This document shows, piece by piece, positions 43,156 through 47,729 of a stretch of DNA of 64,000 nucleotides. Position 1 is the stretch's first letter. Each line of letters begins with the position of its first letter. Source of the DNA: Podarcis vaucheri (lineage: Eukaryota). The notes beneath the pieces are model-generated. The model saw only the letters and a list, made by a program, of their open reading frames with translations, made no database searches and was not told the DNA's origin. Both the position numbers and the translations under genes were made by a program. Location of the stretch: NCBI GenBank assembly GCA_965113315.1, contig OZ220364.1; one strand, written 5' to 3'.

Positions 43156-45845
43156 ATCTAAAGGAAGATAAATATTAAGTTAGCACAGTAACCATTTTCA
43201 AATAACCCATAATGGCCCTACGCCTTTCTCAGGGCTTCCTGCAGGTCCCACGCTGTTGGCCTTTGTTGTCAGGCTGGTTCCTGCTTGATTAAGAAAGTGA
43301 TACTGAAGCAGCAGTCCTGTTGGCCTGTGTTCCCTTTCCTTAACAGCAGGATGGGTAAGGCTACTTCATGCAGAGGCCCTAAGTTGCAACAGGCTGGGTC
43401 CTTGAGAAGAGCTCATCATCATTATTTATTATTATTATTTATTAAAATTGTATATCGCCCTATATCCATAGATCTCAGAGTGGTTCACAACACCAGGGTT
43501 CTTGGAGCTATGCCATGGTATGTCCTGCCACCTTATCTAAATATAACTGTGTCTACCCAGTCCTTTTTTACGGCAATGCGACCTAAGATAGTTGCAGCTA
43601 TCATATTCCATTGTTTTCAATAGCACTTAGTCATAGGTAACTTTAGCTGGATCTTGGGTATATGTTCTCATATGCAGATTGTATCTTAAAAGTTTAAAAA
43701 AGATGTTTCAGAGTGAAACTAGGGGGGATAATTAATGTAGGAAAACAGACGTTTCAGTTTTGCATAGATTTAATGGAAATCCATTATGAACTTGCAAATG
43801 TCAAGGGTTACTAATACGGTGACATGGTCTCAAGGACAGACTGGATGAGGGCTTTCAGTGTTTCAATAAAAGGCCCCATTCACTATGGACATGTGTTTAA
43901 TTAATAAAATTCATTTTCACCTAGCTTTTCAATCTGCTTCTGGCTCCAGCGTGCACTAGTTCAAATAGTTCCTTCTGTTTTATTATTTTTATTAAGTACA
44001 TGGAGTTTATTAATACAGTTATTAGATATGTTTCTACAGCCTTTCACTGGGATTTTCATTTGCTCAAAACAGAGATGGCTCTTGTGTGTCCCACACAGCA
44101 AATTCACTTCAGAGAAGGAATCTGACGCAACAAACCCTTCTTTGCAACACACACCGATCCAAAACAAACCTTCGAGACACACTCCCCCCTCCAGGGTTTC
44201 TGGCCAACCAGCCAGGAATCTCACAAATAAATAGAGTTGTGGCTCCATGGGTGAGCTGAGAATAAATCTGTTTCACCCGAAATGAGATGGAAAGTAGAGG
44301 TCAAGCTTGCTTAGTGAATTGGTGGCCGAATGCCAAAACTAGTCACCCCAAGGGCAGCATAAAATGATTCATTTGTTAGCCTGACCCAACAAATCTTGTA
44401 AAATAAGGTGGTACACCTCTCTCTTTGGAATCTCGGTAGAAAAAGTTGATGGCAGCACTTTTTCTGAATGCATGTATATGCCCATTAAAAGATTAGCATT
44501 ATAGCATTATAATTATTTTATATTACTTTTAGCATACAAACCCATTTTCAATGTGGACTCCTTTATCACTGGAATAATACTATCACATCATTATCTGAGC
44601 CGGCTATGTTCCATGCACTGAGGTAGCCTAAACATTCAAGCAGAAAATTTAGCTTCAAAGGAACCCCAAATTTTCACAAGACAAAATAAAAATAAAAATC
44701 TAGCTCTCAATGGAAATGTGAGGGAGGAATACACTGTTCTGATGTGCTAAACTTCTCCTTAATCCTTTTATAATGTGCCTTCCAGTAGCAACAAATCTTC
44801 CTATTTATTACTTATACATTCTTTTCTACTCTCTACTCTGCATTTTGGGCAAATTTATTCCATACCCTCAGATATTGCATTCAGAGTTACATATGCCCAT
44901 TTAGTAAATGTATTTAAAGTTGTTTGGATTATAGTACTCATTTGTTGCATTTTAGAAGTTGGATTTATTTAATCATTTAGTTTGTATCCGCTGCATCCTG
45001 GTCATTTTTAACCTAAGAAGAGGGCAATCCTAACTATGTCAACTCAGAAGTCCTGTTGAATGCAGTGGGCCTTACTCCCAGGAAAGTTGGGTTGGGATTG
45101 CAGCCTAAAGCAGGGGTAGTATACCTCAGAGACTTTATCCCTTTTCTGTCTGGCTTCTATGTAGCTCCCTCCTCAACCCCACCTTTTCCAAATTTGTGCC
45201 TTACCTAGCCTAGGTCTGGTTGTCTCCATATGATCCTGGATGGGATAAGAGTCAACCAGAAACCCCAGGCACTTTTGCAGGCAATCATATAAGATGCAGC
45301 GAGTATGTGAATCAAGTGTGAAGCACACAGAGATTTGTGTGGAACAACTTGTAGCCTGGTTCTGTGTGAGTTTTCTTGAAAATAAACCCCACTGTGTTCA
45401 ATGGGGCTGATTTCTAAGTACAAGGTTGGGCTCCAAATTGCTTGCCACTCAAAAGAGGCCTTGGAGTTGCTGTCAACAGCTCCATGAAAGCATCAGCTCA
45501 ATGCACTGCAGTTTTTTTTTAAAAAAAAAAAAGAAGGCAAATGGTAAGTTAATAAATGGTGTATCCAGAGCTCACATACTTATTATTTGTAGATTTGGTA
45601 ATCCCATCTCAGAAAGGGCGAAGTAATACTGGAAAAATACAGTGTAAGCAAGAAAAATAATCTGAGGTACAGAGCACCTTCTGTCAAGGGGGGAAAGAAA
45701 CAGCAGGGAATGTGATCAATGTAAACAAAATTATGGATAGATGGGGGAGGGGGAAGCAAATTAGAAAGAGTTGTTTATCCTTTCAGCTCCTACGGTCAGA
45801 GGGACCTCCAAAATGTTACCACACTGCAAATTTAGAATACATAAT

Positions 45846-46670
45846 TGTCAGGGGCTCAGGAACAGAGGTACAGGGGAGAGAGGAAATGGAGAGCGAAGGG
45901 GAAGAATCTGAGGGCAGCGTAGGGGAGTATGACAGTGACCCGAGAGATTCCATGAGCTTCTCCAGCGAATCAGAAGATTCCCAGAAGGAGGCGCCGATGG
46001 TCAGGGCAAGGGGGGTCCCAGGGGGGACACACCAGGAACAGGGGGCCAGCGGGGACTCCCAAAGCGGCAGCGGGAGATTGGGACCAGCTTCCCCACCAGA
46101 GCGTAGTGGGGGGGAAGAGTCCCATGTGTCAGGACCAGCGTCTCCTCCAGCAGGGAGAGAAGATGAGTCAGGGCTGACCACGCCTCTATCGGAGAGTGGG
46201 GGAATGGAGGGGAGGTCAGGTTCAGCTAGCCTCCCCGTAGGGGGAAGCAGTGACAGGAGCAGTGTAACGGTCAGGAGGAAGGTTGCCGGCTGGGCGGGCG
46301 CGCCAAGTTCGAATGTACAGGCGCGTGGGACAGCAGAAAACCCGGATTGGGAACCAGGTCCCAAAGCCCGCCGGAGGCAGGGGGAAGACTCAGGGGACTC
46401 AGCGTCAGAAGAGTCTAGGAAGGGCGAGACCCCAGCTGACAGGCGGAGCCAGAGGAGGAAAGAGCAAAGGAAGAGGTGGAGCAAGGCTAGAGTCTTAAAC
46501 TGGTGTCTGGGGGGAGGAGATTCAGACGGAGCTTCGGCGGTCTAGAGTTTCAGACGTAGAGCTGCACGCTGCGGCTTGGAAAGCGAAACTGAACTTCAAT
46601 AAAGACTTTTGTATATAACAAAGAACTGGCGTTGGTCCTTTGTGAGCTGGGACCTCGGGCAGCTCTGACA
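45846..46670 (+). mobile_element. Solo LTR (Gypsy/BEL/ERV-type, 825 bp, young)
   Basis: TGTCAG...CTGACA inverted termini with a perfect 5-bp TSD ATAAT (45841-45845, 46671-46675). TATA-like cttaaa near 46494, AATAAA at 46598-46603, and many retained CpGs. Confidence 0.9.
45886..46545 (+). CDS. Putative LTR-encoded 219-aa disordered protein (acidic N-terminus, GPASPP repeats, basic C-terminus)
   Basis: ATG in good Kozak context (gaaATGg), frame open from the LTR start to TAG at 46543-46545, AATAAA about 50 nt downstream, and internal repeats that differ at synonymous sites. Confidence 0.5.
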   Translation: MESEGEESEGSVGEYDSDPRDSMSFSSESEDSQKEAPMVRARGVPGGTHQEQGASGDSQSGSGRLGPASPPERSGGEESHVSGPASPPAGREDESGLTTPLSESGGMEGRSGSASLPVGGSSDRSSVTVRRKVAGWAGAPSSNVQARGTAENPDWEPGPKARRRQGEDSGDSASEESRKGETPADRRSQRRKEQRKRWSKARVLNWCLGGGDSDGASAV

Positions 46671-47729
46671 ATAATCATCTCCTATACCGTTGCATTTTGA
46701 AACTTGTCTCCAGCAAAAGAAAAAGTGGTAACATTGAACTGGATCCCAAAATTTGATGAGTGCATAGAACACCGAAATATAAGCAGTGACTGGGTAGAAC
46801 ACTCAAAACATGGCGTGGCATGCTTAGAATGTCCCTCAAACTGCTTGGTCAGGGGTGGGGAACCTGTGGCCCACAGCCCTCCAGATGCCATTGGGCTCCA
46901 ACTGCCACCATCCATGACAGTTGGCCGCGCTGGCTGAGGACTGATGGGACCAGTGGCATAGTGTGGGGGCTGGGGGGCCCGTGGCCCTGGGCACATGTTT
47001 TTGAGGGGATACAGTCAAGCACCCCATACGACAGGTTCCCTCATTGTGGGAAACCGCAATAGACTGGGGTAGCAGCGGCAGTGGCTACTGCTCCTTAGGG
47101 CCGCCCTGGGCTGGCCATGAGGAAGGGGGAGGGCACCACCCCCAGTAGGCCGCAGTTCCACTCCCACATCAGGCCTGTCCTGGGGGTGGAAGCGGCAGCG
47201 AGGAGGGCAAACAGCGGCTGAACAGGAAAGAGAGGTTTTTCTTCCTTTCATATACAATAACCTGTGGGCTTCCAATGAAAACTGAATGATGGAAGTCTCA
47301 AGACAGACAAAAGAAAACACTTCTTCATGTTAGTTTCTGTTTGCCACTGAGCAGCTGCTTAGAGTCACAAGGCTCTGTTTACATTCCAGAGACAGTCCAG
47401 GCTATTGGAAGTCTCACGGGAGACTAGAGACGGATGTGACGTTACTGGTTTCCTGTTTCCTTTGTTCCTTTGTTTCACTTGCTCTCTGCTTTCATAGAGA
47501 GAGGATGTATATTTCTTTGCTGTCTGCCTAGCTTAGAAATAAAACTCTTTGCAATGTAGCCATAAATCTCATCACTTCCGCATGCTGCTGGAAACTCTGC
47601 TGAATGGGGGAATGTGCCTTGGAGCCTCAGCAAAGGCTCAGGTCGTTAATTATTCATCGGGAGAGCGATTCCGGAGGAAGATGAGCTTTATCAGCTTGGC
47701 CGAGCGGAGATCCCGACACTTCACACCAC

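Follow-up and report, generated by a model that had tools for sequence, protein, structure and literature searches.

An open frame in a lizard solo LTR as the probable LTR-encoded end of a Ty3/Gypsy pol gene

What does a 232-codon open frame inside a solo LTR encode? The locus lies in a 64,000-nucleotide stretch of Podarcis vaucheri DNA (contig OZ220364.1); this whole stretch is termed the window, and all coordinates refer to it unless another contig or locus is named. A preliminary description took the frame for a separate accessory gene of a squamate LTR retroelement, which solo LTRs would disperse as a ready-made terminal exon. The part that stands is a real, conserved coding frame in an LTR retroelement, one whose named relatives are lizard proteins. 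For the rest we favor another reading. The frame is very probably the end of a Gypsy pol gene that continues past the polypurine tract and through U3. The integrase would then end in a long tail, acidic but basic at the tip, which likely works in nuclear import or in contact with chromatin. Behind this reading are the continuity of the frame with pol in sister families, the domain order, a fixed stop position and purifying selection, all directly observed.

The solo LTR and its open frame

The LTR occupies 45846..46670 on the + strand (825 bp), has the ends TGTCAG...CTGACA and belongs to subfamily A of a Ty3/Gypsy element, as judged from its repeat copies and the domains of the parent. Its target-site duplications, ATAAT at 45841..45845 and at 46671..46675 (both +), are as first described, and they are matched by an empty site in a related organism, where a contig (run X17) passes straight from 45840 to 46671, five letters fitting either side. 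Contigs of a further run (X15) enter the LTR from both flanks. The LTR is one copy of a repeat, with 2640 candidates at a first look, the best 40 of them at 96-100%, and exact 5-bp duplications flank 21 of the 29 nearest other LTR copies. At one locus, L083, a different sequence follows the first LTR codons, likely an insertion. The window's solo copy is likely a passive remnant, left by recombination between two LTRs.

The + frame is open from LTR base 2 (45847) through an ATG at 45886..45888 to a TAG at 46543-46545, upstream of an AATAAA polyadenylation signal at 46598..46603 (+), again in agreement with the preliminary description. It comprises 232 codons plus stop (45847..46545), fills the predicted U3 and the first 22 nt of the predicted R, and encodes 219 amino acids when counted from the ATG. 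Its product is acidic at the start and basic at the end, as was noted from the outset. The caveat made there, that length alone is weak evidence, also holds: mononucleotide shuffles yield a frame of at least 219 codons in 0.2% of cases, and Markov simulations in ∼2% (5000 each). Among the 29 nearest other LTR copies the frame is open to its normal stop in 19.

Direct searches with the product gave little. Pfam has no family for the 219-aa product or for the antisense product, and the ESM Atlas gave no usable match for the LTR product; with the whole tail it gave weak chromo-like leads, none reaching 0.9. AlphaFold on a five-sequence alignment reached a mean pLDDT of 36, uninformative for the tail. 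The antisense product comes from a 241-codon frame in the ORF list (45816..46541, −), whose third codon positions are common with the + frame. It is open in 11 of 15 aligned rows and has a single stop in each of the four family-B rows. We reject it as a coding frame because of the family-B stop and the common wobble positions; it is likely a shadow of the + frame.

Upstream of the LTR the frame extends through 62 more open codons into host DNA (45661-45846, +), with an in-frame host ATG at 45733. This extension is probably due to chance, and it is the one feature that would suit recruitment of the window's solo LTR by the host as a coding terminal exon, an explanation to which we give next to no credence. 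The insertion is absent from the related organism, an intact frame is usual in young copies (the 19 of 29 above), the single upstream pyrimidine-rich AG (45798) is out of phase with the frame, and no exon-like context was seen.

No RNA data set is listed as containing the locus. RNA reads from another organism, one run, map to the LTR with foreign flanks and almost never to the window's flanks; with such flanks the run is uninformative on the window's own copy. Beyond the LTR, run X24 covers a repeat of the window at 47327-47474 deeply, and ∼1000 of its reads switch strand between 47355 and 47474; this may be a hairpin-forming SINE transcript from another locus.

The parent element and the end of its pol gene

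The parent was found through a 3′ flank common to three of 30 LTR loci, and was then extended. Pfam domains describe a gag with Ty3 capsid and CCHC, then PR-RT-RH-IN-SH3, and no env. The best matches among solved structures are Ty3 Gag-Pol (E 1.5e-132) and PEG10 (E 3e-5), and the named relatives are all UniRef entries of the lizard Podarcis muralis. Homologue searches returned 3, 5 and 6 matches in separate runs, and 5 in a run against 1.84 billion representatives, with none beyond P. muralis entries and unnamed proteins. Two of the P. muralis proteins, named ‘Gypsy retrotransposon integrase-like protein 1’ (P0005 and P0013), contain the same fusion of pol and tail, and P. muralis gene models match 99% of the family-B tail at 77% identity. 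The parent is a Ty3/Gypsy element and has three features of the Tf1/sushi group, namely 11-nt self-priming, a slippery site between gag and pol, and a degenerate chromodomain.

The gag and pol frames overlap, and in six of seven elements the overlap contains GGGAAAC, at which a −1 shift would produce Gag-Pol. Following SH3 is a chromodomain-like segment that matches Pfam Chromo at E 0.013, below the cut-off, and the HP1-alpha chromodomain at E 0.006. The Y/W/F aromatic cage of the chromodomain aligns to N, R/K and T in these elements. Despite replacement of all three cage positions the segment is strongly conserved (omega about 0.1; e.g. L116 5480-5640), which suggests a non-canonical ligand.

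A tRNA primer site was rejected: TGG is absent, and the sequence matches part of the LTR instead. That part is an 11-nt self-primer at 46524..46534 (+), the predicted first 11 nt of the RNA at the U3/R border, which is complementary to a site just after the 5′ LTR in complete elements. Of 52 elements fetched, 40 have a parsable 5′ LTR end; the match is 11/11 in 28 of these, 11 have one to three mismatches, and one is a parse failure. Family B has two changed primer positions with matching changes in the primer site, and in family F the self-primer co-varies with its site (10/11 matched). Private primer changes are mirrored in the site in two single elements (apparently L192 and L193), as expected if the primer site is copied from the primer. 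A centroid fold pairs the self-primer with the site, at an energy not above that of shuffles (z −1.45).

Tf1 is described as priming from the first 11 bases of its own RNA (PMC7175516), and self-priming as a trait of the Tf1/sushi group (PMC6317226, bioRxiv 2022.12.06.519325). With a self-primer of this kind R is predicted to begin, and the RNA to start, at 46524. A TATA-like TTAAA at 46495..46499 (+), 25-29 nt before the predicted start and overlapping codons, is a putative promoter recognized from its sequence. Almost all of the frame lies upstream of this predicted start, and the promoter of a solo LTR would therefore leave it untranscribed; the window copy would keep its frame through youth, with its own promoter firing farther down.

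Among complete elements of sister families the frame is joined to pol. In five sister families (B, C, D, F and G) pol is one frame of 1520-1579 codons that crosses the polypurine tract and fills U3. The frame has 1566 codons in all seven family-D elements fetched, 1520 in all three of family F, 1553 in one of two of family G, and 1557 and 1579 in two of 13 of family C. Family B has gag and a single 1561-codon pol ending inside the 3′ LTR in nine of 12 fetched elements, which were picked partly for long frames; the LTR pairs of these nine are 99.3-100% identical. A genome search with the relative P0004 gave 16 frames of exactly 1561 codons among the 150 matches listed, three of them duplicates of one insertion. 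When family B, the youngest, was resampled by the DNA upstream of the tract, 21 of 30 elements read from the chromodomain to the normal stop, eight were broken and one was not parsed. The pol stop falls 125-126 nt before the LTR end in families F and G and in the window. On this evidence the window's frame (45847..46545, +), which is in frame with pol in the sister families, is very probably the LTR-encoded pol end, that is, the C-terminal tail of the integrase.

In subfamily A, to which the window's LTR belongs, read-through was found in one of 30 integrase-anchored loci (three not parsed), no frame exceeds 748 codons among the 150 best protein matches, and G runs of varying length put pol and the LTR frame in all three relative phases across the tract. 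The junction breaks lie in different G runs in different copies, and the simplest reading is independent G-run slippage in ageing copies. Family-B breaks are scattered on the tree, for which reason a frameshifted sub-lineage in that family was rejected. A single A insertion, present as two duplicate loci with a common flank, keeps pol and LTR frame in a single phase over 1590 codons, interrupted by one stop; a programmed read-through stop in the tract was rejected, being present in this insertion only. The LTR pairs of copies that read through are younger than those of broken copies (median 0.13% versus 1.12%; 19 and 12 elements). This is only suggestive, as long frames guided the choice of many elements and age and family are confounded.

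Some loci have peculiarities of their own. The LTRs of L180 differ by 4.9% though its pol is unbroken, and this element is likely a recombinant. An A-type element (L033:1000-4545) is interrupted near the integrase end by an opposite-strand element with Copia-like open frames. The loci L031 and L032 are a 99.8% identical duplication, in which a 628-codon tandem C2H2 zinc-finger frame (L031/L032:7600-9500, −) lies ∼6 kb from a truncated A element.

The frame could have originated as a pol tail and yet be, in subfamily A, a separate protein now, made from its own ATG (45886, or one at the border of tract and LTR) on a subgenomic or re-initiating message. We judge this very unlikely. The ATG at LTR codon 14 is indeed confined to subfamily A, where four of 11 elements checked have it and the other seven have ACA, ACG or GTG (in families B, C and D the first LTR ATG is at codon 25), and it is probably an internal Met. 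The A junction is broken in nearly all copies, yet 19 of the 29 nearest LTRs have an open frame; however, the breaks fall in different G runs, like the scattered family-B breaks, as independent slippage would produce, and the LTR frame is itself affected at the G run 46108..46114 (+), which varies in length between copies, is the commonest frame-break site in the LTR and carries an indel in 13 of 47 LTR copies. The A insertion in which an intact pol ends in the tract and an intact LTR frame follows would suit a separate protein too, but the two loci of this kind have the same flank and count as one event. The window's LTR and A3, compared with each other, show fewer changes at 0-fold sites (transversions, p=0.02), against which stands the lack of detectable selection among A copies, described below.

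Four RNA runs from a related organism cover all 30 bins of a complete family-D element, the LTRs several-fold deeper than the inside, and of the four joints listed in these short-read runs, at low internal depth, none is GT-AG. With the frame an in-frame pol end in complete sister elements, its ATG specific to a subfamily and no such joint in the four runs, the separate accessory gene of the preliminary description is not upheld.

If the frame is instead the end of pol, U3 would be read as code only at the 3′ end of the full-length RNA, and the protease would release an integrase with the cage-less chromodomain and about 360 further low-complexity residues. The apparent LTR protein would thus be the end of a roughly 410-residue integrase extension, of which the last 210-230 codons are LTR-encoded.

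Selection on the LTR-encoded frame

The maximum likelihood alignment has 15 rows, and rows with frames under 180 codons were dropped. For U3 it yields omega 0.34 (LRT 106 versus omega=1), and omega 0.37 (LRT 33, 123 codons) when CpG-touched codons are removed; the two shifted frames give 2.15 and 1.25. Adding family F leaves the values for the true frame at 0.34 and, CpG-free, 0.39, and with it all four segments of U3 reject omega=1, the lowest values (0.24 and 0.20) being at the two ends. NG86 comparisons between families, made with natural copies only and at similar dS, place the pol core at about 0.05-0.10, the chromodomain at about 0.1, the post-chromodomain tail at 0.19-0.59 and U3 at 0.20-0.33. 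The tail frame is under purifying selection between families, much weaker than that on the pol core (omega about 0.34 versus about 0.08).

Several features stand out along the product. An acidic serine cluster, SSESEDSQK (45961..45987, +), is nearly invariant in an alignment of eight rows; the frame contains ten S/T-x-x-D/E sites, and the cluster may hold CK2-like ones. EPGPKARR (46351..46374, +) is invariant in all eight aligned rows. The DWEP motif of the preliminary description is present in the window and was rejected as a motif, as its W is R or S in other families and the D-W before EPGPKARR is variable. A basic, NLS-like segment ending in W-C (46441..46509, +) is marked by its charge, its omega and its structure model: net charge is +7 in the matching last 30 residues of family B, omega is 0.20 over the last 32 codons, and a helix is predicted at low confidence (pLDDT about 50). 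Overall the tail is rich in S, G, E and R and acidic over most of its length.

Such figures might also arise if the frame were translated within Pol as a mere tolerated read-through spacer, with its conservation due to the promoter, the primer, RNA structure or CpG-biased mutation. Purine-rich, T-poor sequence does give a frame of this length in about 2% of simulations, and the most conserved end overlaps the predicted promoter and self-primer. Pairwise U3 tests are significant in eight of ten pairs on transversions and in five of ten on non-CpG sites, and the pair D-C has no signal on either. There is also a neutral control, the changes between the two LTRs of one element, most of which arose after insertion. 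In 29 elements its N:S is 72:47, or 59:36 when one likely recombinant is set aside, a ratio far under the 2.6 that site counts predict. This synonymous-rich control is probably a product of CpG decay, and it means that raw omega overstates constraint.

Against the spacer stand the omega of 0.37-0.39 that is left without CpG codons, the rejection of omega=1 by all four segments, and a stop at the same position in A, F and G. Invariant residues, moreover, are mostly written with different codons between families (61 of 103 columns, and 10 of 15 in the last segment), a pattern that favors protein-level constraint and that DNA-level constraint would not give. We hold the spacer to be a slim prospect, slimmer than the separate protein, and take the constraint to act on the end of Pol.

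Deletions tell the same way. Among 47 A-type LTRs, eight deletions of 6 nt or more lie away from G runs, and six of these have a length divisible by three (p=0.02); both multi-copy deletions (in five and four copies) keep the frame. The G run holds three more indels, of 3-5 nt, and a single one of these is in frame. The frame retention, in-frame multi-copy deletions and omega of about 0.35 between families agree with the coding frame of the preliminary description. Within subfamily A no selection was detected: singleton changes in 21 copies have an N:S of 64:44 against 72:47 in the control (p=0.89). Changes among A copies thus resemble post-insertion decay, and with the predicted RNA start at the 3′ end of the frame, the proposal that solo LTRs disperse a ready-made terminal exon does not hold up.

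The tail's possible roles and comparison with known systems

For the job of the tail we can offer candidates by analogy. Nuclear import is the first, a serious candidate if somewhat short of probable, and a nuclear role of the basic end is plausible. Tethering to a host factor or target site is possible though rather unlikely, help for RT, the particle or stability is unlikely, and a separate protein cleaved off from Pol is highly unlikely.

The distribution of the elements bears on targeting, in counts that include some duplicate loci. Family-B internal-region matches fall within 3 Mb of a large-contig end in 24 of 34 cases (7% expected). LTRs of subfamily A are spread evenly, with no end bias (3 of 36), and A elements with internal regions are end-biased too (11 of 19), so retention of full-length elements explains the pattern as well as targeting does. 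Half of the A-type internal-region loci (20 of 40) are on contig C41, which is 2.6% of the assembly and possibly the W chromosome. One young family-B element (L117; C33:485500-492500) lies among TTAGGG-like repeats at 0.49 Mb from the end of a contig. At C1:22.34-22.35 Mb, C41:18.09-18.11 Mb and C10:0.20-0.21 Mb there are rows of three or four LTR matches at intervals of ∼5.8 kb, which suggest tandem elements with common LTRs.

A bolder scenario, which we consider improbable, is that the chromodomain has lost methyl-lysine reading and that target choice has moved to the LTR-encoded integrase tail, which would steer integration to chromosome ends or heterochromatin. Vertebrate elements would then have arrived anew at the centromeric CR-motif design of plants, and the code for the tethering peptide would sit in thousands of solo LTRs.

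Nuclear entry and target choice depend on the integrase tail in Ty1, Ty5 and CRM elements. A young vertebrate family that has a cage-less chromodomain and a new tail is therefore a direct way to study the replacement of targeting modules. What looked like an LTR gene becomes a dual-use U3, in which roughly 630-700 bp are both promoter region and conserved integrase code, and the solo-LTR ORFs, thousands in the genome, will resemble orphan genes.

Coding in U3 is familiar from MMTV sag and HIV nef, which solo LTRs carry as well. Those are separate genes with their own start, whereas the lizard frame is the end of pol, and the LTR follows pol directly, with neither env nor an extra gene in between. 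The P. muralis UniRef gene models already hold the whole fusion including the U3 tail, in entries that carry no remark that the last 210 residues lie in an LTR. A literature search, largely of openly available papers, turned up no vertebrate element with pol filling U3, which is weak evidence of novelty.

The closest relatives in design are the Tf1/sushi chromoviruses (Tf1, sushi-ichi, the V-clade and the ancestors of PEG10). They have in common with the lizard elements the Gypsy domain order, a CCHC gag, a −1-type slippery heptamer in the gag/pol overlap, a chromodomain-like segment that follows the SH3 of the integrase, self-priming with 11 nt in place of a tRNA site, and TGT...ACA ends (PMC7175516, PMC6317226, bioRxiv 2022.12.06.519325, PMC3601003). 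The lizard elements differ in adding about 360 residues after the chromodomain, 210-230 of them U3-encoded, and in having the cage aromatics replaced. The U3 of fish sushi is described as T-rich (PMC3601003), whereas that of the lizard element has 12% T.

A functional model is offered by the Ty1 integrase tail, which two sources (PMC9673352, PMC7175516) present as large, disordered and rich in serine and acidic residues, with CK2 sites and a terminal basic NLS with a targeting peptide. Ty1 belongs to the Copia superfamily and its tail lies within pol, not in the LTR, so the two tails are likened by features and not by homology.

In plants, pol extends into the 3′ LTR in CRM group A chromoviruses (CR motif; Beetle) and in the Bingo elements of beet, as described in PMC3059260 and PMC3605345. 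Pol reaching the 3′ LTR is what CRM group A and the lizard sister families have in common. The plant elements are primed by tRNA-Met and the CR motif replaces their chromodomain; the lizard elements, with lizard relatives, are self-primed and keep a degenerate chromodomain upstream of a low-complexity, acidic and basic LTR-encoded tail. The two designs are likely convergent. Pol running into the LTR is already known from plants; the lizard elements combine it with Tf1/sushi features and a selected coding tail in U3.
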